Below are positions 37,133 to 63,349 of a stretch of DNA of 64,000 nucleotides, one piece after another; position 1 is the first letter of the stretch, and the number at the start of each line of letters is the position of its first letter. Position numbers and translations under genes: made by a program. This DNA is from an uncultured Pseudobdellovibrionaceae bacterium (GTDB taxonomy: Bacteria > Bdellovibrionota_B > Oligoflexia > Oligoflexales > Bog-1112). The stretch lies in contig CAZWOL010000006.1 of the NCBI GenBank assembly GCA_964635325.1, forward strand, positions 3,849 through 67,848. The letters are read 5' to 3'. The notes beneath the pieces were generated by a model. That model saw nothing but the letters and a program-made list of their open reading frames with translations, was not told the DNA's origin and made no database searches.

Positions 37133-39376
37133 GTGGGTGAGGAGCTCAAACTTTCTTATATTTCTAATATGTTTAGGGTCCGACTGACGATTCCACACAA
37201 AGTCTGTCGCGAAAGCCCTGAGGTCCCCTCTGATATTTTAGAACGCGCGCGGGCAAAACTGCAGCAAGTGCAACGCGAAGGGGCCATCGAGATTTTCACA
37301 CTCTATGAATCAACCCTGCGCAAAACATGGGAAAACTACCGAGCGCATCCAAGCCCACCCAGCCCTGACATAACGTTAACCGTTGGGGAGGGTTGCCCCA
37401 AACTCAAAGGCTTTGAGATCAAGGCCGCTAATGATTCGCGCAGTATAGCCTTGCTCAGCATCCAAAACGATGCCAGCTACCTCCGACTGCTCCGACTGGA
37501 ATGGATCGTACTTTACGTAAATCACTTTCTAAGTGAAATTCACATTCACGAGGAAGCTAATCCAGCCCATGTGCATCGCGCATGGCTAAAAGCAATCAAT
37601 GGCGTAATTGTGCGGGATTTGGCAATTGGCCCCAAGCCTCAACTACTCCCCGATGAAAATGTAAAACCATTCTCCATCTACACACATGCTAGCGGAGAAA
37701 TCACACTCATTGTTCGCAACGTGAACCTTACCCTAGCAGGCCGAGAGCCTACTTTCCTAACACAGGCCCTGCTGGATGCTAGCCAAAAGATTAACCTAAG
37801 AGCCGACGAACATTTTCAACTCTTAGAACGAGAGACACTCACAGCCATTCAGAGTGCAATGGAAGGACCAGAAAGCATTGGTGTACGCCTTCCCTTGGTG
37901 CTGCTTGGAGGCTTGGCTCTTAAACGCAATCTGGAGTTTGCAACACCTCAATACCCAGGAGTGGGTCGACTCAATCTACATATCAGCACAGATAAACTAA
38001 TCGCGACTGTTGAAGGCTTTGACTCGCAGATCTATGCAGATAGCAACTTTGTTCCAAATGAAGAGTGGCTTAAACGCGAATTGCGTCGCTACGCCCTAGC
38101 ACCAGAGGCATGCAAACCTTTTTTTGAAAACCTCCTCACAGCTCTTCTTGCTCAAGAATCCTTAGAAGGTTGCACAGTAGCCGAAGGTGTAGAAGCCATG
38201 GGAGGCTCAGGCCCCTACCTTGAAATACTCTTTGGCCACAAAGAAGAAGACAGCAGCGAAGCTGAAATTGTTGATATGCGCAGCATGCAACAAATTGAGT
38301 TTGTTAAAAAAGGGCAACCTATTGCAAAAATCAGCTATGATAACCCCCCACTTCCAGGCTACGACGTTTTCGGGCATGCGATTTATCGAGAATCCGAGTC
38401 ACTTGCTATTCAACTTGGTGACGGTGTTATCGAAAAAGAACCCGGAAGTTTCTATGCTGACTCCGACGGTATTCCAATCGTAGATGAACATAAAATCAGT
38501 CTCAATAAAGTTATGGTTCATCATGGAGATGTAAACCTCAGTAGTGGAAATATCGTTTTTGATGGTCCTGTAGAAATTTTTGGATCCATTGACAGCGGAT
38601 CCATGGTCGAAACAAGCGGCGATCTAAAAGTACACGGAACAATACGTGGAGCGATTGTTAGAGCTAAAGGAGACATCGAAGTTGAGGGAGGTATCGTCAC
38701 AGGAAAATCAGGAAGAGTGACTACCCAAAAAAATCTCAAAGCTGAGTTTATAGAAAACTCATTCATTGAATGCGGTGGGTCTGTCTTAGCTCACAAAGTT
38801 ATCATTAATAGCGACGTCATCGCTGGAGGTGATGTTGAAGTCACTGATAATTACTCGGGCCTGCTCGCCGGCGGAAGCATCAGCTGTCGCAAAAATATTC
38901 GCTCCGCAAATATTGGCTTCAAAAATGGTGCTGTCACAAAACTCAATGTAGGCGTTGATTGGAAGCTCGAACTTGCAACCTTAGTCTTCAAAAAAAGACT
39001 CGATCGCATCAAAGATGTTATGAGCAGTGACCGACAGATTGTTCGAGAACTCACATCTAGAACCCCTAGCCAACTTACAGAAAAACAGCTACGTCGTCGC
39101 GAGCACTTTCAGCGACGTCTCGTCAAAGAACGCAGAATTATGGAATACCTCCAAGATAAAGTACGGACTTTAGAGAGCCAAAGAACCTACAACTATGAAT
39201 CAAAAATTCTGATCTCAAACAAAGTTTGCACAAATGTCGAAATCAATATCGGCGGTGGTCCCGTTATCTTAAAGCAAGATCTTCTTGCTGTCGCAATACT
39301 TGCAAAAAGGCGCTCAGGTACCAAGATCGTTTCGTATAAAGTCGGGATCCAGCTATCCGAACGTGATGAAGACTAG
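37133..39376 (+). CDS. DUF342/FapA-like protein (747 aa) with a long unique N-terminal region
   Basis: The C-terminal half carries the DUF342 beta-helix pattern (HHGDVNLSSGNIVFDGPVEIFGSIDSGSMVETSGDLKVHGTIRGAIVRAKGDIEVEGGIV...FIENSFIECGGSVLA...AGGDVEV...LLAGGSISCRKNIRSANIG) followed by a coiled coil. GTG start 16 nt after the HAMP gene. Confidence 0.75.
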   Translation: MGEELKLSYISNMFRVRLTIPHKVCRESPEVPSDILERARAKLQQVQREGAIEIFTLYESTLRKTWENYRAHPSPPSPDITLTVGEGCPKLKGFEIKAANDSRSIALLSIQNDASYLRLLRLEWIVLYVNHFLSEIHIHEEANPAHVHRAWLKAINGVIVRDLAIGPKPQLLPDENVKPFSIYTHASGEITLIVRNVNLTLAGREPTFLTQALLDASQKINLRADEHFQLLERETLTAIQSAMEGPESIGVRLPLVLLGGLALKRNLEFATPQYPGVGRLNLHISTDKLIATVEGFDSQIYADSNFVPNEEWLKRELRRYALAPEACKPFFENLLTALLAQESLEGCTVAEGVEAMGGSGPYLEILFGHKEEDSSEAEIVDMRSMQQIEFVKKGQPIAKISYDNPPLPGYDVFGHAIYRESESLAIQLGDGVIEKEPGSFYADSDGIPIVDEHKISLNKVMVHHGDVNLSSGNIVFDGPVEIFGSIDSGSMVETSGDLKVHGTIRGAIVRAKGDIEVEGGIVTGKSGRVTTQKNLKAEFIENSFIECGGSVLAHKVIINSDVIAGGDVEVTDNYSGLLAGGSISCRKNIRSANIGFKNGAVTKLNVGVDWKLELATLVFKKRLDRIKDVMSSDRQIVRELTSRTPSQLTEKQLRRREHFQRRLVKERRIMEYLQDKVRTLESQRTYNYESKILISNKVCTNVEINIGGGPVILKQDLLAVAILAKRRSGTKIVSYKVGIQLSERDED

Positions 39377-50990: not shown

Positions 50991-51848
50991 TCATACAGAA
51001 TAGGAATAAACACCTTGCTTGGTCTTGCGTCCAAGTCGACCAGCATCAACATACTGAATCAGTAACGGACAAGGTCTATACTTTGCATCACCTAGTCCTT
51101 TATGAAGGACTGTCATAATGGCCAAACATGTATCAAGTCCGATAAAATCGGCAAGCTGCAATGGTCCCATAGGTTGGTTGGTACCTAATTTCATACCAAG
51201 GTCAATGTGCTCTGGAGACGCTATTCCCTCCATTAAAACATAAAACGCTTCGTTGATCATGGGCATAAGAATGCGATTGATGATAAAACCTGCATAGTCT
51301 TTGCTACGCACTGCTTCTTTTTCTAGTGACTTAACAAATGCAAGCACACGCTCCGTAAGAGTCTCATGTGTTTGTAGAGCAGGAATCACTTCGACCAAAT
51401 TCATTAGAGGAACTGGATTCATAAAATGAAGGCCGATCGCACGTTCTGGCTTAGCGAGACAGGCCGCCAATTTGGTGATAGAAATTGAAGACGTATTGCT
51501 TGCAATTACACAGTCCTTAGAAACAACACTCTCAATCTGACGTAAGACACGCTCTTTGAGTTCGATTTTCTCATCGACCGCTTCCACAACAAGATCACAA
51601 CTCTTTAGAGCTGAATAGTCTTCTGTGAAATGAATTGCAGCAATCGCATCTTTTTGCTGAGTGCTAATTTTTTCTTTCTCGAGTAACTTTGCCGCAGAGC
51701 GTTGTATGCCTGCCTTGGCGACATCTAACTGTTGTTTTTTGATATCCACCAACACAACACTTGCACCATAAGTTGCACAGACTTGGGCAATACCAGACCC
51801 CATTTGACCTGCACCTACAACTCCGACAGTACCAAACGCTAGTGACAT
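50991..51848 (-). CDS. hbd: 3-hydroxybutyryl-CoA / 3-hydroxyacyl-CoA dehydrogenase
   Basis: 285 aa. Rossmann block VGVVGAGQMGSGIAQV, plus NTSSISIT and HFMNPVPLM. Confidence 0.92.
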   Translation of the reverse strand: MSLAFGTVGVVGAGQMGSGIAQVCATYGASVVLVDIKKQQLDVAKAGIQRSAAKLLEKEKISTQQKDAIAAIHFTEDYSALKSCDLVVEAVDEKIELKERVLRQIESVVSKDCVIASNTSSISITKLAACLAKPERAIGLHFMNPVPLMNLVEVIPALQTHETLTERVLAFVKSLEKEAVRSKDYAGFIINRILMPMINEAFYVLMEGIASPEHIDLGMKLGTNQPMGPLQLADFIGLDTCLAIMTVLHKGLGDAKYRPCPLLIQYVDAGRLGRKTKQGVYSYSV

Positions 51849-51857
51849 TTTTACTCC

Positions 51858-54260
51858 TTACAACTCAGCAAAACTTTGTGGATCACGCTCATGCATCATC
51901 TTGTAAACCAACTCTACGATATCATCCGTACTCGGTTTGGAAAAATAGTCTCCGTCCGATCCGTATGCTGAACGATGAGCTTTTGCAGAAAGCGTCCGAG
52001 GGGCCGCGTCAAGATATTCATACGCTTTTTGGGTCTCTAAAACTTCCTGCATCATGTATGCAGTAGCACCACCAGGGACATCTTCATCAACAAAGAGCAC
52101 CGCATTTGTTTTGCGAATAGAATGCAAAATCGTATGATCAAGGTCAAAAGGAACTAAGGTTTGTACGTCAATGAGTTCGACCGAAATACTGAGTTTTGCA
52201 AGTTCGATAGCAGCAAGCTGCGCCAGAGCCACGCACGCACCGTAGGTCACGATGGTCAGATCTGTTCCTTCTCGCAGAATTTCACAGCACCCTAGAGCTA
52301 CTGTGTAACTCCCCAGGTTATCGGGAACTCTTTCCTTCACACGATAACCATTGAGCACCTCGATCACGAGAGCTGGATCCTGTCCTAAAAGCAAGGTTTG
52401 ATACATGCCAGCAGCTTGCGTGCAATTCCGTGGCACACAGATATGCATCCCTCGCAAAGAGCCCAGCAACATGCCCATCGGTGAACCCGTATGCCAAATG
52501 CCTTCGAGACGGTGACCTTTGGTACGTACAATCACAGGAGCAATCTGCCCACCTGCTGTTCGATAATGGAGAGTTGCGAGATCATCGCTCATCCCTTGCA
52601 ACGCAAAAAGCAAGTAATCCAGATACTGAATATCTACGATCGGTCGCAAACCCCTCATAGCTGCACCAAGCCCCTGACCGAAGATCGTCATCTCACGGAT
52701 ACCCGTATCTGTCACACGGAGTGCTCCATATTGTTTCCACAGACCCTCGAACTCAAGATTGACACCTCCGAGTTGTCCAACATCTTCACCGACAATGAAC
52801 ATGCGAGGATCCTGCGCAAGTTTGATCTCGAAGTATTTTTGTATAATCTGACGCCCATCAAGATGAGCCGATGCTTCGGAGTACTGAGGAGCTAAAGCAG
52901 GCACTTGAAGAGGTGAGTGATGTCGGCTCAGCAGGCAACTACTGTAAGCAGTTGTACAACGTTGTCGGTATGCTTCGAGAAAATTACGCAGAGCATCGGA
53001 ATTTTTATTCTCAATAGAGCGTTGCAAGAGAGTCTTGCGCGCCCATATATCAAGCTGACGCCGCAACACATTCGATGTTGAAAGTTCTGCGTCCAGTTTG
53101 TGTGCAAGCACGTCACCATCTTCAGGCAGTTGGCGTATGCTTTGCAGCAGAGCCTCGCGTTCTTGTAGAATAGCTCCTTGGTAATCATCCCAAGCAAGCT
53201 GACGCTCTCGCTCAACGAATGCAACCGCTTCTTCGTCGATCCTTGCGAGCGTATCTTCGGTTGCAATTTTTTGGCTAAGAATCCAGGCTCGCATCACCTT
53301 GATACCATCGATGGAATCTTCATAGTCCAAACGTTCTTTTGACTTGTAACGTTCATGACTCCCGCTAGTCGAGTGTCCTTGCGGTTGCGTTAGGTGAGTT
53401 ACGTGGACAATACAAGGAGCATGTGTCTCCCGACACTTAGCAATCGCTCGCGAATAGACATCTACCAAGGCTTCATAGTCATGACCAGGAACCGTGTAGA
53501 TATCAAATCCCTTCAATTTTCCTTCGCTTGCAAAACCTTGGAGCACCAAGGACAAGCTGCTTTTGGTCATTTGAAATTCGTTAGGAACAGATATACCGTA
53601 GCCATCATCCCACAGAGACATAGCGAGTGGAATCTGCAGAACCCCAGCAGCGTTGATAGCTTCCCAGAACACACCTTCTGCAGCAGCTGCGTTGCCGATA
53701 GTACCAAAGGCGACCTCATTTCCCTGCACAGAAAACGAAGATGCTCCCTTCCATTGCTGTAAAGCGGACTCTTGACGATAGAGTTTGGAAGCATAAGCAA
53801 GACCAACAAGACGGGCCATCTGCCCTCCGGTTGGAGAAACATCACTCGACACGTTATGCATCGACATTTGCGACAACCAAGCACCACTCTCATCGATATA
53901 GCGTGTTGCAAAGTGGCAATTCATCTGTCGCCCACCCGATGCAGGCTCACGCTCTAGAGAAGGATCTGCATAAAGCTGTGCAAAAAATTGTCGAACAGAA
54001 CAAACCTCCAAAGCCATCATTAGAGTCTGGTCACGGTAATATCCAGAGCGCCAGTCTCCCTTGCGAAAGGCACGTGCCATCGCAAGTTGAGCGATCTCTT
54101 TACCATCTCCAAAAATACCAAACTTAGCTTTTCCTCCGAGCACTTCTTTGCGACCGAGCAAGCTGGTCTCTCGACTCACCACTGCAAGTTTGTAGTCATC
54201 AAGAATTGCTTGTAAAGCTTTGATGTCTCTTTGAATGTTCTCACGACTTGCTTTCGCCAT
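51858..54260 (-). CDS. 2-oxoacid dehydrogenase E1 component, fused alpha/beta subunits
   Basis: About 800 aa. The N-terminal half is E1-alpha/TPP-binding-like (AAAEGVFWEAINAAGVLQIPLAMSLWDDGYGISVP). The C-terminal half is a transketolase-like pyrimidine-binding and C-terminal domain (FIVGEDVGQLGGVNLEF...RVTDTGIRE). The start at MAKASREN (54260) is preferred. Confidence 0.85.
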   Translation of the reverse strand: MAKASRENIQRDIKALQAILDDYKLAVVSRETSLLGRKEVLGGKAKFGIFGDGKEIAQLAMARAFRKGDWRSGYYRDQTLMMALEVCSVRQFFAQLYADPSLEREPASGGRQMNCHFATRYIDESGAWLSQMSMHNVSSDVSPTGGQMARLVGLAYASKLYRQESALQQWKGASSFSVQGNEVAFGTIGNAAAAEGVFWEAINAAGVLQIPLAMSLWDDGYGISVPNEFQMTKSSLSLVLQGFASEGKLKGFDIYTVPGHDYEALVDVYSRAIAKCRETHAPCIVHVTHLTQPQGHSTSGSHERYKSKERLDYEDSIDGIKVMRAWILSQKIATEDTLARIDEEAVAFVERERQLAWDDYQGAILQEREALLQSIRQLPEDGDVLAHKLDAELSTSNVLRRQLDIWARKTLLQRSIENKNSDALRNFLEAYRQRCTTAYSSCLLSRHHSPLQVPALAPQYSEASAHLDGRQIIQKYFEIKLAQDPRMFIVGEDVGQLGGVNLEFEGLWKQYGALRVTDTGIREMTIFGQGLGAAMRGLRPIVDIQYLDYLLFALQGMSDDLATLHYRTAGGQIAPVIVRTKGHRLEGIWHTGSPMGMLLGSLRGMHICVPRNCTQAAGMYQTLLLGQDPALVIEVLNGYRVKERVPDNLGSYTVALGCCEILREGTDLTIVTYGACVALAQLAAIELAKLSISVELIDVQTLVPFDLDHTILHSIRKTNAVLFVDEDVPGGATAYMMQEVLETQKAYEYLDAAPRTLSAKAHRSAYGSDGDYFSKPSTDDIVELVYKMMHERDPQSFAEL

Positions 54261-54290
54261 CACCAACCTCAATTTGTGTCTGAGAATAAA

Positions 54291-56772: not shown

Positions 56773-57702
56773 TTGAAGGATGAACTTGAATTCCATAGAC
56801 ACTGCAATGGAAGTCTAATCATCGCGAAAGGAACTTTTTTGTCTATAACTTTTTCCCAGATACTACTTTCCCCACTCACCTGGATTTTCTTCGTCTTTGG
56901 CTCGATTCTAGGCAGTTTTGCCAATGTATGCATTTACCGCCTCCCCCGAGAAATCTTTTGGCGCTCACACCGCTCCTTTTGCCCGCACTGTGAAGTCCCC
57001 ATACCTTTCTGGTGGAACCTACCCATTTTTGGTTTCCTCCTACTCAGAGGAAAAACTCACTGTTGTGACAAAGCCATTCCACGCTATTATCCGCTCGTAG
57101 AACTCTTCTGCGGATTGATGGTTAGCTACATCTACTGGCACTTTCCATTTTGGGGTAACGAACTCCCCCTTATGCCCCTACATATTCCAACGCTTCTTCG
57201 CTTTCTACATGCGTTGGTCTTTGCTTATCTGCTTCTGATTGCCTCAGTTATTGACATGCAGCACATGATCATCCCCGATGTGATTAGTCTGCCTATGGTT
57301 GCAGTAGCCCCACTTATTGCTTGGCTTCATCCAGATCTAACACTCCGCAGTTCGGGACTCGGCATTCTCCTTGGTGGAGGTGTATTCTTCCTGGTGGGGT
57401 GGATCTATATTGTACTGAGACGCAAAGAAGGCATGGGAATGGGTGATGTCAAGCTCCTTGGCGCCATCGGTGGTTGGCTCGGCTACGAAGCCCTTCTGCC
57501 CACTATACTTTTCGCATCGATCAGCGGCACCGTACTGAGTCTGAGTTGGATGCTATTCAAACGCGAATGGGACATGCAGGCTCCAATACCTTTCGGTCCA
57601 TTCCTTGCAACTGGTGCTGCATTTTATCTGCTTGCTCCTATGCACTGGCTCGAAGCCATTTCACATTTACAAATGGCACTTGCAAATGCACTCACCAACT
57701 AA
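56773..57702 (+). CDS. pilD: Prepilin peptidase (A24 family, PilD-like)
   Basis: Contains GSILGSFANVCIYRLP, a Cys-rich cytoplasmic loop (CPHCEVPI ... HCCDKAI) and the catalytic Asp contexts MIIPDVISLP and GMGMGDVKLLGAIG. The exact start is uncertain. Confidence 0.88.
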   Translation: MKDELEFHRHCNGSLIIAKGTFLSITFSQILLSPLTWIFFVFGSILGSFANVCIYRLPREIFWRSHRSFCPHCEVPIPFWWNLPIFGFLLLRGKTHCCDKAIPRYYPLVELFCGLMVSYIYWHFPFWGNELPLMPLHIPTLLRFLHALVFAYLLLIASVIDMQHMIIPDVISLPMVAVAPLIAWLHPDLTLRSSGLGILLGGGVFFLVGWIYIVLRRKEGMGMGDVKLLGAIGGWLGYEALLPTILFASISGTVLSLSWMLFKREWDMQAPIPFGPFLATGAAFYLLAPMHWLEAISHLQMALANALTN

Positions 57703-57811
57703 AACTGGATATTCACTCTAGGTCAAAACGACGTAGCCCCATCATCAAGAACTTACACCCCGTATGCGAATGTCTCGATGATTTAAAATTTCAACATCGA
57801 AGGAGCTCGCC

Positions 57812-58792
57812 ATGCGGAATTGGAATCTCGTAAGCTTAGGTTTGGGCTTAGCTTTAAGCGGATTTGCACTCGGAAACTACAGCTTTGACAACGAAGACAA
57901 TCTTTATAATCAACGAAATAGTTCTAATGACCAGGTCAATTTTGATGCAGCTCAAAAAGCATTTGATGCTTATGCGGCTATCTACAATAACAAAAGCCAC
58001 AGCACTGAAGACAGGTTGTATGCTTTCACCCAAATGGGTCGCTCACAAATCTATGCAGGCGGCATGCTCAAAGGTGCAAATTTGCAAGCGCGCAAAGAAG
58101 CACTCACAAAATGTTACAAGATTGCCCAAAGCGCTCGCAAAGAATTTGTGGGAAAACAAGAACCACATTATTTCTATCTAGGATGCATGGCTGCGCTAGC
58201 AAAAATTTCATCAGTTGGCACTCGTCTTAAACTTGCTCTAAAGCTCCCCTCAGCACAAAAAGAAGCCCTAGCTGCCAGCACTGTCGACGGCAAATTGGTC
58301 GGTGGTTTTGAAGGCGGAGGATCCCTTCGTGTCTCTTCAGGAATCGCATCCAACATCAAAGCCAAAGGTGTACCAGGTGGCTTCTACAATCCCAAACGTG
58401 CGATCGAACTCGCCGAAATCGCTCTAAACACTCCGACTATGCAGTCACATCCTTTCGAACCAATGAGTGGCAAAGACTATTTTGACAACTACTACTATCT
58501 CGCTTTTGCTTACTCTTCGCTGGGTATGGAAGAAAAAAACTTCAGTCATGTTGAAACCGCTTACAAAATCGTCACCGATCAAGTGAAAGCAATTGATGAC
58601 CTTATCGAAGCCAATGAGCTTCCAAAGGGACGTGAACCTGAAACAATGCACTACAGAACGGAAATGCTTGCGATCAAGTCAAACATCGAGGCTTGTCGCT
58701 CACATGCAAGTTGGGTTAGCTGCTTAGACGGTCGTCTCAACAAAGTGTCTGAAGAAATCGAAGCTAGCACAACAGAACACGACGACCTTTAG
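57812..58792 (+). CDS. Exported all-helical (TPR-like) protein of unknown function (326 aa)
   Basis: SD AAGGAG upstream and signal peptide MRNWNLVSLGLGLALSGFALG. Helical-repeat-like composition. First gene of a three-gene string with 35- and 18-nt spacers. Confidence 0.7.
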   Translation: MRNWNLVSLGLGLALSGFALGNYSFDNEDNLYNQRNSSNDQVNFDAAQKAFDAYAAIYNNKSHSTEDRLYAFTQMGRSQIYAGGMLKGANLQARKEALTKCYKIAQSARKEFVGKQEPHYFYLGCMAALAKISSVGTRLKLALKLPSAQKEALAASTVDGKLVGGFEGGGSLRVSSGIASNIKAKGVPGGFYNPKRAIELAEIALNTPTMQSHPFEPMSGKDYFDNYYYLAFAYSSLGMEEKNFSHVETAYKIVTDQVKAIDDLIEANELPKGREPETMHYRTEMLAIKSNIEACRSHASWVSCLDGRLNKVSEEIEASTTEHDDL

Positions 58793-58827
58793 GCGAGACC
58801 CCTAATCGAGAAAGGAAAGGAGCTCAT

Positions 58828-60060
58828 ATGTGGCACAATTTTCAGAAACTACAGTTTGCATTTTTGGGGCTGATCACAGCAGGGTCAGCCTATTCGATTG
58901 AGAACACAAAGGTACTTCCTAAGGGAGTCCGAAGTTTCAACATCAAAAGCGTGCAAACTTCTGTCGACCAAAAGACCGATGCCCAGGGCTTCTTTCACTC
59001 GATCGCAGAACCACTCGCGAAAGATTTCACCTTTCGTAAAGTGATTGAAGGTGAAAAAAACCCGACCAACCGCTTGCTACTGCAATCCTTTCTTCAGGGC
59101 AAATTTAGCGAAAGCGACAGTCTCGGCACTTTCTCCGCAGACATGAAAGGAAACATTCAGGTAACTGGAGGGATCTTCTCCTACGGTGCTACAGACAATC
59201 TAACACTTGCACTCGGCATCCCCTATTACCAAGCAAAAATGCATGTACGCATGGGTTTTAGAGCCTCTGAAAATGCTCAAAGATTTGTAGCAGCCCTAAA
59301 CGAACACGGAAACAATCAAACAGCAAAAGCACGTGAAGTTGCAGACAAATTAACTTTTGCTGTTCGTGAGTTGAATAAAAAACTCACTGACAATGGTTAT
59401 TCTGAAATTCAAGATTTTGAACGCTCCGGAATTGGGGATATCACCGTCGGTGCAAAGTATCTTTTTGTTGAACAAAGCTGGATAAAAACTGCAAATGCTT
59501 CAGGTGTAATCGCACCCACAGGATATGCTGGAGATCCCAACGTATTGGTAAATGTTCCTTTCGGCACTGGATCTTGGGGACTCTTCACAACATTTTATAC
59601 GGATGAATTTATTCGTGAAGATCTTTGGTTCAACCAATATGTAAAATACACCTACCAGGTTCCAACACATAAAAATGTACGCATGAAGACAGAAGATGAA
59701 TCTATAACAGTGCCTGAAGAACGTCTTGGATTCAAACCCGGCGATCGCTGGGAAGCTGGAGTTTCAACACAGTATGAGCCATGGTTTGGTCTTATGGCAG
59801 CTGTTGGGCTTAGCTATGCAGGGAAAAATGGGGATCGCTACGATACCGACAATTTAGTTTCGAAAAACGCTTTGGAAAAAGATGGATTCGAACGTGCATC
59901 ATTCTTAGAGGCTCGCATCGGATACCAAAGCATCCCAGCATTTAGACGTAAGGAAATTCCTGTACCGTTCGTTGTTTCTTTAGAAATGAAGCGACACCTT
60001 AGTAGTATCAATACAGTTGTCAAAGATCTTTACACTGCCGACTTCAGTCTTTACTTCTAA
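58828..60060 (+). CDS. Outer-membrane beta-barrel protein (MetA-pathway/transporter-like OMP), 410 aa
   Basis: SD AAGGAG, signal peptide FAFLGLITAGSAYS and alternating beta-strand pattern. The SGIGDITVGAKYLF block resembles the GxGD...KY motif of that OMP family. C-terminal aromatic end ...DFSLYF. Confidence 0.7.
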   Translation: MWHNFQKLQFAFLGLITAGSAYSIENTKVLPKGVRSFNIKSVQTSVDQKTDAQGFFHSIAEPLAKDFTFRKVIEGEKNPTNRLLLQSFLQGKFSESDSLGTFSADMKGNIQVTGGIFSYGATDNLTLALGIPYYQAKMHVRMGFRASENAQRFVAALNEHGNNQTAKAREVADKLTFAVRELNKKLTDNGYSEIQDFERSGIGDITVGAKYLFVEQSWIKTANASGVIAPTGYAGDPNVLVNVPFGTGSWGLFTTFYTDEFIREDLWFNQYVKYTYQVPTHKNVRMKTEDESITVPEERLGFKPGDRWEAGVSTQYEPWFGLMAAVGLSYAGKNGDRYDTDNLVSKNALEKDGFERASFLEARIGYQSIPAFRRKEIPVPFVVSLEMKRHLSSINTVVKDLYTADFSLYF

Positions 60061-60078
60061 GAACAAGGGACAATACAT

Positions 60079-61905
60079 ATGAACTACAATTATCAAAAAC
60101 GATTCGTCCAACTGAGTAGCTGTATTTTTGCAGTATATTTTTCTGCCTGTGGCCCACGAGATCCCAAGATTCAGGAGCAGGAGCGTTCTGTTGTTAAACT
60201 GCCTGAATTTGCAGAGGCATCGCAAATCTATAGCTTTCTTCATAAAGACGCTCACTTACGCAGCGATCTCAGCAAGGATTTTTTTGAAGGCACTCTCATA
60301 CTCTGGAAGGATGAGGCGGCTAAAGAAAAACTCGCTGATGTTCTTGAATCAGCACGTCAAACACGAGAAGACAAGGCTTATATAGCAGCAACCAAAAAAG
60401 CAATTGCCATTGAAAAAGCAGCCCTCGACAAAGATGTCGACAACAAGCTTAGAGCTCTCAACAATGATCTTCGACAAAAAGAGTCAGACCTGGCAAATTT
60501 GAAAAATTCTCCAGAGTATCGCAAGCAACAAATGGAGGAGATGGACTTTTATCGCAAGCAAAGCCCTCAGCTTCTTGCGGACAACCAAGCTTGGCTCGAT
60601 AAAAACAAGACTTCTACTAGCGATGAAGCCTTCCAAGATTACTGCGATGTACGACTTCTAGAGTTTGCGATCTCCTCAATCTTACGCAACCAAAGCTTTA
60701 CAGAGCGACCTAAAGTTCTCGGTATCTGCGAAGGTTATTTTGCATCACGAAATCTCTTTCAAGGAACAAGCTGCGCAACCGAACAGACGGGTCGTGGAAA
60801 TTACTTCCAATGCATTTGGGAAAACGGGATACTCAAAACCTTTAGTTTACTTAAAAAAAACGGCAGCAAAGCTGATAATGATGAACAAAATGAGTTTATA
60901 AGCAAACTTGACGAACTCAAGACTTGGATAACCGCTCAGACCAATCTCAATCGTGAAGTTTTCACCCTAAAACGCGTTGGAACACAATTCAAAATAGAAC
61001 TGGATCGCAGCGGAGCAAAAAAACGGTTGGTCAAAATCCACAACGATGGTCCCACATCTTTTTTGCAAGATGAAACAAGTGTCGTCTTTCTCAAAACCCT
61101 TACAAAAGAACGTACAAGCGGCACTCATACGTATTCATTTCACGACATTCTATTCAACACTCATATACTTACGGAACTTGACTCAATCCCAACAATGGGA
61201 GAATCCGACAAAGCCGAGTTTGGCACCCAGATTCGACAATTGGATGTACTTTTCGGGCAACAAAGCCCAAACATGAAAGCAGATAGAGATTTACAGAAGC
61301 AATTGATAAGCGATATTCAAAAAATCAAGAATCAAATCGTTATCGAATCAGAACGTAAAAATGCGAGTTCACCACGAAGTCCAGAACTCAAAAATGCGCA
61401 GGAAAAACTTTTGACGACTGAGCAAAAAACAGCAGCCATGCTTAAAGGTGAAAACCTTGCTCATCTAGTACTTAAAAGCCAAGTTACTTTTGAAAGTATT
61501 GACGACACTCTTATCGCTGTCACCGTCAATCTCAATAGCGGGGCAAACCATGACAAAGATTTACGTGGCTGCTTCAATAAAAGCACAGGCGCCAACCAAA
61601 GATGCCCAAGCTCTCACGCAATTGGATCACCTGCAGAGCTTAGCTTCAACCAGAACAGCGGACTATTGACCGTTCGCTCGGTCTTGCAAAATGCAGTTGA
61701 GCTAGGATGTCGCTTCAACGACGGAGATGCGGACTTTCAGTTGATTCCCGAAGTAGCTCTTACAAATCGTACACTTTACTTGGAGCTTTACCCTGAGTTA
61801 TTCACCAATGACTTAAAACTACTTGGGGGCTTAGCTCAGGTGAAAGATGGAAATTCGATTTTATTTCAGGGAAACATGTCACTTACAAGCAAGACCAGCG
61901 ACTAA
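60079..61905 (+). CDS. Coiled-coil lipoprotein of unknown function (608 aa)
   Basis: Lipobox AVYFSACG. Long K/E/Q-rich helical segments and several Cys pairs. No family recognised. Confidence 0.7.
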   Translation: MNYNYQKRFVQLSSCIFAVYFSACGPRDPKIQEQERSVVKLPEFAEASQIYSFLHKDAHLRSDLSKDFFEGTLILWKDEAAKEKLADVLESARQTREDKAYIAATKKAIAIEKAALDKDVDNKLRALNNDLRQKESDLANLKNSPEYRKQQMEEMDFYRKQSPQLLADNQAWLDKNKTSTSDEAFQDYCDVRLLEFAISSILRNQSFTERPKVLGICEGYFASRNLFQGTSCATEQTGRGNYFQCIWENGILKTFSLLKKNGSKADNDEQNEFISKLDELKTWITAQTNLNREVFTLKRVGTQFKIELDRSGAKKRLVKIHNDGPTSFLQDETSVVFLKTLTKERTSGTHTYSFHDILFNTHILTELDSIPTMGESDKAEFGTQIRQLDVLFGQQSPNMKADRDLQKQLISDIQKIKNQIVIESERKNASSPRSPELKNAQEKLLTTEQKTAAMLKGENLAHLVLKSQVTFESIDDTLIAVTVNLNSGANHDKDLRGCFNKSTGANQRCPSSHAIGSPAELSFNQNSGLLTVRSVLQNAVELGCRFNDGDADFQLIPEVALTNRTLYLELYPELFTNDLKLLGGLAQVKDGNSILFQGNMSLTSKTSD

Positions 61906-61933: not shown

Positions 61934-63019
61934 CTAATACGGCCATGCACCTTGAAAGAAATAACGAACTGAGATTGAGGCAGAAATTGCTACAGTGAGC
62001 AGCACAAGAACCCCGAAGCCGACTCTTGCTTGTAACGTCTGAAATTTCGCAAACCAAACGTGTCCGTACTCCCCGAGCGCAAACCACATAGGGAAAAGTA
62101 CTGCTGCAAAACGCAGAGCTGAAGGGAAGTTGCTACCCTGAAGAGGCCAGAGTAAAACACTACCAAGAACATATGCATAGATCGCTAAATTTTTTCGCCA
62201 GTTCTGTCGAATTTTGACAAAGCAGATTGCAACGCTCATCCAGAGCAAACATGCACGCCAGAAATTCGACACACTCAGCCAGACTAGTTTGGAGAAATAT
62301 TCGCGCAACTCAATATGGCCCCAATGATCTTGTGCTTTGACAGATGCTAGAACATCTCCCGTTTTCCAATATAAGAAGCTCAACCACAAAGCATAAAGGG
62401 AAGCAGAAATGAATCCTGAACATAAAAAAATTCTAATGCGTGACCTTAGACTCAAACCAGGAGTCTGTAGACATAGCAACAATGCAATAGCTGCAGCACA
62501 GAGCACCCCCTGGTTACGAGTGAGAGCAGCAAGCCCAGCAAGCACGGAGGCGAAGACAATACGATTTTTAGTTGCAGAACAGAAAGCAAAGTATGTCAAA
62601 AACAGAAAGAGAGACTCTGTATGATTGGAAAAGAAGACCCACGATGCTGGCGAGAATGCGAGAAAAAAAAGTCCTAAAAGAGCTACACGCTGTCTTGCAG
62701 CATGAAAAAATACGATCGCAAAAAGTGTAAGAGAAAAAAAGCTTGCAAAGAATAGATGCATCGATATTGGAACAACAAGAAGCATCATTCTGAGTATAAG
62801 AGGATAAAGTGGATAGAAAGCAAAGGGAACATCGAAGGCCAGCCCTCGAGTTGGACTATAACCCTCTGTCGCTAGATGGGTGTACCAAAAAGAGTCCAGA
62901 TAACTCAGTTTCTGTTCTAACAAATTAAAATCAAACCCCACACTAATCAGGGCTATGGATATATGAAGCACCACATACAACGCAAATATAACCACAGCAA
63001 ATGGGACAGCCTTCTTCAT
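61934..63019 (-). CDS. Polytopic membrane glycosyltransferase, PIG-V/mannosyltransferase-like
   Basis: 361 aa, about 9-10 TM segments. The N-terminal loop LDSFWYTHLATEGYS resembles the D-S-x-W-Y-x-x-I-A-x-x-G-Y motif of PIG-V-like mannosyltransferases. Confidence 0.5.
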   Translation of the reverse strand: MKKAVPFAVVIFALYVVLHISIALISVGFDFNLLEQKLSYLDSFWYTHLATEGYSPTRGLAFDVPFAFYPLYPLILRMMLLVVPISMHLFFASFFSLTLFAIVFFHAARQRVALLGLFFLAFSPASWVFFSNHTESLFLFLTYFAFCSATKNRIVFASVLAGLAALTRNQGVLCAAAIALLLCLQTPGLSLRSRIRIFLCSGFISASLYALWLSFLYWKTGDVLASVKAQDHWGHIELREYFSKLVWLSVSNFWRACLLWMSVAICFVKIRQNWRKNLAIYAYVLGSVLLWPLQGSNFPSALRFAAVLFPMWFALGEYGHVWFAKFQTLQARVGFGVLVLLTVAISASISVRYFFQGAWPY

Positions 63020-63034
63020 ACGCGAAAGATCCTT

Positions 63035-63349
63035 TCAATGAGCAAGAAATACAAATTTATCTTGATACCACAACTTGATGCCTGAATCTTTCGCTAAAAT
63101 ACCAAAAAACCGGGGGTAGAAACCGTAAAATCCAACACATCGAGTACGACATGTTTTGCCAAAATATTCTTTTACACCTAGTACTAGACAAACTCTCCCG
63201 AAGGCATTGCGGATCGCATCGAAGCTTGTCTCATTCGCATAGTTCCAGACAAAATTCACAGCTCTTGCCATATCTTTGAGCTCTCTTTTTATAGAAGAGG
63301 CTTTAATGCGAAAAGAATATGTGAGGATAGTCGACACACTAAGGACCAC
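63035..63349 (-). pseudogene. Possible decayed IS200/IS605-family TnpB-like remnant (104-aa ORF)
   Basis: YSFRIKASSIKRELKDMARAVNFVWNYANE resembles the TnpB N-terminus (Y.FR.yP...Q...L......RFVYN.aL). KEYFGKTCRTRCVG faintly resembles the ..YTSKTCS.CG zinc-finger block. Everything in between is missing. Weak, by eye only. Confidence 0.25.

Follow-up and report, generated by a model that had tools for sequence, protein, structure and literature searches.

Two kinds of bacterial protein with a part in the trafficking of lipids and other hydrophobic molecules, the COG4313 channels of the outer membrane and the TatT proteins of the periplasm, are each only half-understood. Members of COG4313 have been linked to uptake of sphingosine, chlorophenols and other hydrophobic molecules (PMC4493636). 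Two features mark the superfamily to which these β-barrels belong: a putative lateral gate where Asp/Thr and Pro-Thr-Gly residues form a conserved cluster, and a short stretch at the N-terminus that sits inside the barrel lumen (PMC4493636, PMC5557850, PMC6173800). The superfamily also includes FapF, the secretion channel for functional amyloid in Pseudomonas, whose features as a channel have been described and whose substrates are unfolded amyloid subunits (PMC5557850). Only recently were TatT proteins shown to bind lipids, long-chain fatty acids in the case of Tp0956 and Es_TatT and sterols in that of BstC, and roughly 25% of the TatT proteins are not encoded with the genes of a tripartite ATP-independent periplasmic (TRAP) transporter (PMC11713862). 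In the literature that we searched, we found no description of accessory partner proteins for COG4313 channels, no characterised non-TRAP partner of a TatT protein and no paper linking TatT-like proteins with COG4313/Phenol_MetA_deg barrels. Here we describe such a combination, a triad of adjacent genes (A, B and C) for a TatT-like carrier, a COG4313-type barrel and a lipoprotein of a new family, in a 64,000-nucleotide stretch of DNA (the window) from an uncultured Pseudobdellovibrionaceae bacterium (assembly GCA_964635325.1, contig CAZWOL010000006.1, positions 3,849 to 67,848). It is a new combination of known kinds of protein from an under-studied, largely uncultured phylum.

The three genes constitute an autonomous, co-conserved operon restricted to Bdellovibrionota. 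We give roughly even credence to the view that they encode an outer-membrane and periplasmic module which traffics a hydrophobic molecule without a TRAP transporter; the most plausible cargo would be a fatty acid or some other lipid. A hydrophobic ligand is proposed because two unrelated proteins, the COG4313-type channel and the TatT-like carrier, independently point there. An earlier account made from the letters of the window alone (hereafter the sequence-only reading) had described the four open reading frames (ORFs) of this region, their spacers, two AAGGAG sites, the signal peptides, a lipobox and a terminal ...SLYF, and all are as it had them. The spacers computed from the coordinates are 109 nt from the prepilin peptidase gene pilD to A, 35 nt from A to B and 18 nt from B to C. 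The features, in window coordinates, are as follows.

56773-57702, forward strand: pilD, prepilin peptidase, 309 aa, TTG start, outside the module (ORF list and Pfam)
57800-57805, forward strand: Shine-Dalgarno sequence AAGGAG of gene A (direct sequence reading)
57812-58792, forward strand: gene A, soluble periplasmic all-helical protein resembling tetratricopeptide repeat (TPR) proteins, 326 aa (ORF, AlphaFold2 (AF2), Foldseek and hhalign)
57881-58348, forward strand: residues 24-179 of A, the TatT-aligned region (hhalign alignment)
58307-58330, forward strand: FEGGGxxR motif of A, residues 166-173 (hhalign alignment)
58817-58822, forward strand: Shine-Dalgarno sequence AAGGAG of gene B (direct sequence reading)
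58828-60060, forward strand: gene B, 12-stranded outer-membrane β-barrel of the COG4313 (Phenol_MetA_deg)/FapF superfamily, 410 aa (AF2, Foldseek and PF13557)
58900-58932, forward strand: N-terminal segment of mature B, E25-R35 (ENTKVLPKGVR), which may form a plug inside the lumen (conservation and AF2)
59434-59445, forward strand: G203-D204-I-T206 motif of B (conservation in 36 sequences)
59515-59523, forward strand: PTG motif of B (P230-T231-G232), where the lateral gate is proposed to lie (conservation in 36 sequences)
60065-60070, forward strand: weaker Shine-Dalgarno sequence AAGGGA of gene C (direct sequence reading)
60079-61905, forward strand: gene C, 608 aa, predicted lipoprotein of the outer membrane that belongs to a new family (ORF, HMMER and synteny)
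60139-60150, forward strand: lipobox F-S-A-C24 of C (Cys24 invariant in 17 orthologs)
60631-60828, forward strand: cysteine-rich core of C, residues ~185-250, YC(D/E)...RPxP...CExYY...C...(D/N)YFxCxWxxG (ortholog alignments)
61486-61902, forward strand: C-terminal, probably β-rich domain of C, residues ~470-608, with the cysteine pair C498/C509 (hydrophobic periodicity)

Homologs of all three proteins are conserved across many genomes, so A, B and C are real genes and not chance ORFs. Synteny was established by comparing the DNA around homologs of B, for which one genome per GTDB species was scanned with a pattern from a six-sequence B alignment; the hidden Markov models (HMMs) of A, B and C used in the survey of these loci (numbered with the prefix L) were built from the first seven triads. 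The order A-B-C, all on the same strand, recurs in the window and at 15 independent loci with otherwise unrelated flanks: A lies directly upstream and C directly downstream of B in L001, L003-L007, L011-L013, L016, L018-L020 and L022, and the same arrangement surrounds a very distant representative of C in L024. Where sequence is available downstream of B, it is followed by C at 16 of 17 distinct loci; L017 and L021 end at contig boundaries. The spacers between B and C range from -1 to 62 nt, with the stop of B overlapping the start of C in four loci, and those between A and B vary more. In the distant loci L004-L007, L012 and L018, the A-to-B spacer reaches ~110-330 nt, compared with 35 nt in the window, and the junction of B and C remains tight. 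Both A and B travel with C across the clade, so that their juxtaposition is not accidental. The sequence-only reading had taken the three genes for a single envelope module, and their co-conservation in the window and 15 further loci bears this out.

The three proteins have also diverged in step, the pairwise identities of A, B and C being correlated across genomes (Spearman 0.49-0.60). Mean pairwise identity is 42% for B, 29% for A and 22% for C, and B exceeds both of its partners in all 120 of 120 genome pairs. The named records that carry the triad are metagenome-assembled genomes (MAGs) of Bdellovibrionota, labelled Oligoflexales, Oligoflexus, Oligoflexaceae, Oligoflexia and, in one case, 'Pseudobdellovibrionaceae'; most belong to the Oligoflexia. 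At L025, in another organism of high GC content, a remote relative of B (25% identity) has neither A nor C as a partner. A k-mer-indexed homolog search returned 36 clusters for B, four for A and none for C, the last because the divergence of C defeated the k-mer prefilter. The contigs with matches to A agreed in length with contigs that carry matches to B.

The AF2 model of B, computed from a 36-sequence alignment, is a confident barrel with a predicted local distance difference test (pLDDT) value of 87 and a predicted template-modelling (TM) score of 0.78, and 12 long strands can be counted in its DSSP string. The protein has a signal peptide, ends in ...SLYF and contains no cysteines. In a Foldseek search of the PDB with this model, the top match is 4rl8, the COG4313 channel Pput2725 (E 4.7e-13, target-normalised TM 0.76-0.78). 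Matches 3-19 are chains of FapF from 5o65, 5o67 and 5o68 at E ~1e-11 (6e-12 to 8e-12 for 5o65 and 5o67; TM 0.7-0.77), and FadL, TodX and autotransporters rank after these. The consensus of the 36-member B family passes the gathering threshold of PF13557 (26.9 against 22 bits, E 5.9e-6), the family members P0030 and P0035 carry a precomputed PF13557 match, and the B profile finds 4rl8 weakly by sequence, with the match covering the gate region exactly. Hence, B belongs to the COG4313/PF13557 superfamily as a divergent member, which passes the curated threshold at the family level only. The sequence-only reading had foreseen both the barrel and its kinship with outer-membrane proteins of the MetA pathway, and it had singled out a GxGD...KY block that proves to be the most conserved part of the family.

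The conserved positions of B fall where the superfamily has its hallmarks. All 36 sequences have G203, D204, P230 and G232, and at least 90% of them have T231; K210 is invariant in a 15-sequence set and conserved in at least 90% of all 36. We infer that G203-D204-I-T206 is the counterpart of Asp92/Thr94 of Pput2725. About 11 conserved residues (E25-R35, pLDDT 70-95) precede strand 1; 15 sequences agree fully at E25, V29, P31, K32 and R35, and the string E-x-T-K-V-L-P-K-G-V-R is almost invariant. This segment is a candidate lumen plug, a role suggested because of the analogy with Pput2725 (PMC4493636). B thus shares with the COG4313 channels (Pput2725/4RL8, SphA and TcpY) the barrel of 12 strands, the short segment before strand 1, the Asp/Thr and Pro-Thr-Gly gate cluster in loops L2-L3 and the C-terminal aromatic residue. 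It differs from them in that identity is only ~11%, in that two partner genes, A and C, regularly accompany it, and in being ~140 residues longer than Pput2725, loops L1 and L2 being enlarged by conserved helices (residues ~51-97 and 147-196). In the model these helical loops are probably extracellular, a placement made because of strand parity. Two other identities were considered for B and rejected. The fold search with Foldseek ruled out an exopolysaccharide-export protein of the AlgK/AlgE-like kind, and a Slam identity was set aside on finding neither a Pfam match to DUF560 (PF04575) nor a Slam-like structure in the top 50 Foldseek matches.

A carries a Sec-type signal peptide with no lipobox cysteine, and its AF2 model (pLDDT 84) is an all-helical repeat of about 14 helices, in keeping with the signal-peptide-bearing, all-helical, TPR-like protein that the sequence-only reading had seen in it. 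Among 16 orthologs, R35, G169 and R173 are invariant. A also carries an invariant cysteine pair, C101/C125. The profile of these orthologs, compared with PDB sequences, places 8g52 first (E 0.06) and 7cc7 (PTPIP51/RMDN3) second; 8g52 is a TatT protein, Es_TatT, crystallised with palmitate (PMC11713862). The structures that superpose best on the model in Foldseek are the TPR domain of PTPIP51 in 7cc7 (target-normalised TM 0.62), 8g52 (0.55) and the TatT protein Tp0956 in 3u64 (0.55), and other TPR proteins at similar E-values superpose poorly, with TM scores of ~0.2-0.4. For a direct comparison of profiles, three full-length metagenomic proteins recruited with a fragment of 8g52, all of which pass PF16811 at 86-112 bits, served as the TatT reference set. 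The hhalign comparison of the 16 orthologs with these three verified TatT proteins spans 141 columns (A residues 24-179) with P 3.2e-8, and even a single TatT sequence gives a probability of 94.5%; two generic TPR controls from the same scan give 0.5% and 5.6%. The aligned part includes an N-terminal D-F-x-x-A-D-x-L-F-x-x-R motif, and the FEGGGxxR block of A is paired with the conserved G-P-x-R-Y motif of TatT.

These profile comparisons show that A is related to the TatT superfamily specifically, though remotely, and it is not a member by curated criteria: in Pfam and NCBIfam there is no match at E<=1 for the window protein or the consensus, nor at E<=0.1 for the 16 orthologs. With the T component of TatT/TPAT systems (PF16811: 3U64, 8G52 and BstC) and with 7CC7 it has in common the ~300-residue all-helical TPR-like fold, and with TatT the periplasmic location and the motifs A-D-x-L-(F/W)-x-x-R, near the N-terminus, and G-(G/P)-x-x-R. 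Unlike the lipidated Tp0956, A is soluble; it is further set apart from TatT by its invariant C101/C125 pair, by its partners, which are an outer-membrane barrel and a lipoprotein, and by its neighbourhood, there being no TRAP P, Q or M gene at any triad locus examined. The sequence-only reading had named a TatT-like TPR protein as an outcome that would speak against a joint module. A does turn out to be remotely TatT-like, at an hhalign probability of 95.1%, yet the idea of a module is not overturned by it.

C founds a new lipoprotein family that contains no known domain. It has a signal peptide and a lipobox (YFSAC|G) whose cysteine, Cys24, is invariant in 17 orthologs, and in nearly all full-length members of the family a cysteine comes after the signal peptide, most commonly with glycine at the next position. 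An unindexed HMMER search at E<=1e-3 recovered 163 representatives, most of which are 560-690 aa long, so that C alone defines a sizeable family (~160 representatives) that is devoid of any annotation. One match in that search, the 2917-aa P0073, is an SdrD_B/DUF11 repeat protein and was discarded as spurious. The best-conserved stretch in the family search is residues ~185-250. The 17-ortholog alignment has C189, P211, C217, C232 and C245 invariant and W247 conserved in at least 90%; in an alignment of 70 sequences C189, P211, C217, W247 and G584 are invariant, and C232, C245, C498 and C509 are conserved in at least 90%. The central region in the 17-ortholog alignment is rich in insertions and deletions. 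For the window protein, its orthologs and the consensus alike we found no relative in Pfam, NCBIfam or the PDB beyond coiled-coil noise at about residues 70-165 and 390-470, and the PDB matches of the 17- and 70-sequence profiles (an adenosine kinase, a hemagglutinin and a coiled coil) were judged to be noise as well.

The lipobox that the sequence-only reading had reported for C stands, but the dominance of coiled coils does not, for there are only two weak segments of that type, at about residues 80-180 and 400-470. A heuristic map of hydrophobic periodicity in the 70-sequence alignment, calibrated on the model of B (strands 0.76, helices -0.05) and on A (0.06), is β-like at residues 21-80 and 461-600 and helical in the centre, which suggests that C is β-rich at both ends.

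If the three proteins do work together on a hydrophobic ligand, a division of labour can be proposed. B, as a COG4313-type channel, would let the ligand cross the lipopolysaccharide barrier, either through its lumen or through the lateral gate formed by the PTG and GD.T motifs. A, as a soluble protein of the TatT superfamily, would carry it across the aqueous periplasm to or from B, so that the module might serve uptake or export. C, presumably anchored in the outer membrane, stabilised by disulfides and translationally coupled to B, would be an accessory subunit, which could either capture the ligand at the surface as a receptor or act as a docking platform that joins A to B. A comparable three-part logic is found in the outer-membrane arm of the Mla system, which consists of the lipoprotein MlaA, the porin OmpC/F and the periplasmic lipid carrier MlaC and is served by a dedicated inner-membrane ABC complex. 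The likeness of the triad to it, as outer-membrane lipoprotein, barrel and soluble carrier, would be one of functional analogy only: there is no relationship in sequence or fold, and no inner-membrane ABC complex is linked to the triad.

Were this reading of the triad as a trafficking module true, a TatT-like carrier would for the first time have a candidate partner in the outer membrane, and a COG4313 channel would have A and C as its first candidates for accessory subunits. The triad would make it possible to test the handing over of a hydrophobic cargo between an outer-membrane channel and a periplasmic carrier. Bdellovibrionota includes predators that scavenge the lipids of their prey, and the triad may be related to lipid acquisition in this predatory lifestyle.

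Several observations weigh against assigning the triad to the trafficking of a hydrophobic molecule. A fails every curated TatT model (PF16811 of Pfam and those of NCBIfam), even as a consensus; the Foldseek E-values behind its structural matches are weak (5e-3 to 0.1), and its alignment with TatT is limited to the N-terminal ~155 residues. The B of the window itself lies below the gathering threshold of PF13557 (18.7 against 22 bits, E 0.0019), and FapF, its second-best structural relative, exports polypeptides and not lipids. Two loci deviate from the A-B-C pattern, one having B only (L014, 5941-7176) and the other B and C with no detectable A (L023, 5953-8892). Neither an inner-membrane transporter nor an acyl-CoA ligase accompanies the triad in a conserved manner, and with the lack of a conserved inner-membrane component the term 'trans-envelope', which the sequence-only reading had applied to the complex, is not supported; as to the surface anchoring that it had also proposed, the evidence points neither way. 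The lipid-related genes that adjoin C at some loci are lineage-specific, and the role proposed for C is speculation.

The alternative that survives best, which we nevertheless consider unlikely, is that the module exports a polypeptide or lipoprotein, with B as a channel of the FapF-like or Slam/type XI-like sort, A as a docking factor or a chaperone of TPR type and C as a cargo delivered to the surface. The FapF chains among matches 3-19 of B and the PTG motif common to the two barrels are what this would lead one to expect, and B and FapF do belong to one barrel superfamily with near-equal Foldseek scores. However, B is without the trimerising N-terminal periplasmic coiled coil, the linker and the helical (FF) plug of FapF: no helix follows its signal peptide, and only the ~11 residues mentioned above precede strand 1. 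The surroundings differ too, for FapA-E genes are absent from the locus, and the neighbours at seven annotated loci include no Pfam families of the C39 peptidase (FapD) or of the amyloid-repeat subunits (FapB/FapC).

The properties of C itself can be read either way. It is a lipoprotein encoded directly after B and often translationally coupled to it, it is the fastest-evolving of the three (22% identity against 42% for B) with an indel-rich centre, as expected of a surface-exposed protein, and its apparently β-rich C-terminus is loosely like the C-terminal β domains of Slam cargo. Against its being threaded through B, the three conserved cysteine pairs, if oxidised in the periplasm, would hinder passage through a 12-stranded pore. 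Export also finds no DUF560/Slam signal for B in Pfam or Foldseek to lean on, and A is akin specifically to the lipid-binding TatT and not to TPR proteins in general.

A narrower form of export, which we regard as distinctly unlikely, is that the triad represents a new route for surface lipoproteins, in which a B of COG4313/FapF type and a chaperone A derived from TatT would translocate C across the outer membrane. The barrel of Slam, or type XI secretion, is a DUF560 protein whose N-terminal part is a TPR domain, and its surface-lipoprotein cargo is encoded next to it. By analogy, the triad would resemble that system in combining an outer-membrane barrel with a TPR module and in having a fast-evolving lipoprotein beside them; it departs from it in that the barrel is of the COG4313 type and not DUF560, and in that the TPR protein is a separate gene product and specifically TatT-like. 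If such a route were real, it would parallel Slam/type XI secretion as a split system that had evolved independently.

Very unlikely in our estimation is a purely structural complex with no transport, in which C and B would serve to anchor or space the outer membrane or else a surface layer, with A as an assembly factor. C is indeed lipid-anchored and has two helical, coiled-coil-like segments, and the large conserved helical loops on the presumed outer face of B offer a possible attachment site. Yet the most strictly conserved parts of B are the PTG and GD.T motifs and the N-terminal segment, which is unexpected for a mere anchor, A is homologous to ligand carriers, and no peptidoglycan-binding or S-layer domain was detected.

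That the triad might be an accessory module of type IV pili tied to pilD, for instance an outer-membrane pilus component, is barely credible and largely refuted by synteny: pilD does lie 109 nt upstream of A on the same strand, with no terminator-like site between them (counts of such sites being at background level) and with the arrangement kept in the two nearest relatives (L001 and L003/L009), but in L001 an additional gene separates it from A, at the other 13 triad loci pilD is absent and the neighbours are unrelated (tRNA synthetase, CHASE2-SpoIIE protein, RsmI), there are no further pil genes at 37-64 kb of the window, and B is not a secretin. The adjacency, seen in 3 of the 16 triad-bearing genomes, is incidental, because the flanking genes change from lineage to lineage, and the emphasis that the sequence-only reading had placed on pilD is not borne out. 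MutS2 and a fused E1 dehydrogenase accompany pilD next to the triad only in the window and the same two relatives. The pilD product of the window carries A24_N_bact (90 bits) and Peptidase_A24 (75 bits) in Pfam, both the N-terminal and the peptidase domain being held by the 309-aa ORF with the TTG start. Public gene calls on identical or related DNA give shorter products of 176 aa (L031, 4531-5061) and 142 aa (L003, 6478-6906) from which the N-domain is missing; these look like start-codon miscalls.

A fixed fourth gene was sought among the neighbours of the triad and none was found; FabH, START, methyltransferase, Rce1-like protease, ArsR and M48 peptidase genes vary by lineage. Directly downstream of C and on the same strand, FabH (KAS III) is encoded at four loci of the Oligoflexus type (L016, 9239-10273; L019, 6868-7872; L020, 9270-10373; L022, 6178-7317), a START-domain protein at L004 (11073-11735) and a methyltransferase with a weak match to cyclopropane-fatty-acid synthase (CMAS-like) at L018 (9016-9858). 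These lipid-related neighbours weakly favour a lipid role for the triad. At the locus with a lone B homolog, L014, an unrelated lipoprotein of 552 aa is encoded ~2.7 kb upstream.

A comparison of strains aimed at diversifying selection on C found L031 and L032 to be identical to the window, and the differences between L001 and L002 to be assembly Ns. In assembly GCA_003136475.1 (L002/L008, 2660-4547) C is split into two ORFs of 335 and 308 aa. This is an assembly artefact and not a pseudogene, because the same species shows runs of N and indels in the comparison with L001.

The GC content is even throughout the window, so there is no sign of a foreign island, and Rfam and promoter/terminator scans of its 54-64 kb part found nothing exceeding background. 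The window also holds several genes outside the triad. Convergent with C across a 28-nt gap is a gene on the reverse strand (61934-63019) for a 361-aa polytopic membrane protein of no Pfam family; its sole match, to an NCBIfam family for cell-surface glycopolymer formation, is far below threshold (E 5.6e-4, 19 against 150 bits), and the gene is not kept beside the triad at other loci. Just past it, on the same reverse strand (63035-63349), is a 104-aa ORF with a GTG start, again of no Pfam family, which may not be a real gene. Amid housekeeping genes on the forward strand (37133-39376) lies a gene for a 747-aa protein with the N-terminal and β-solenoid domains of FapA, the flagellar assembly protein A, which has no relation to the triad nor, despite its name, to the Fap amyloid system. 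Upstream of MutS2, on the reverse strand (50991-54272), are genes for a 3-hydroxyacyl-CoA dehydrogenase and an 804-aa 2-oxoacid dehydrogenase with fused E1 α and β parts, a block that is syntenic with pilD and the triad in the nearest relatives only.

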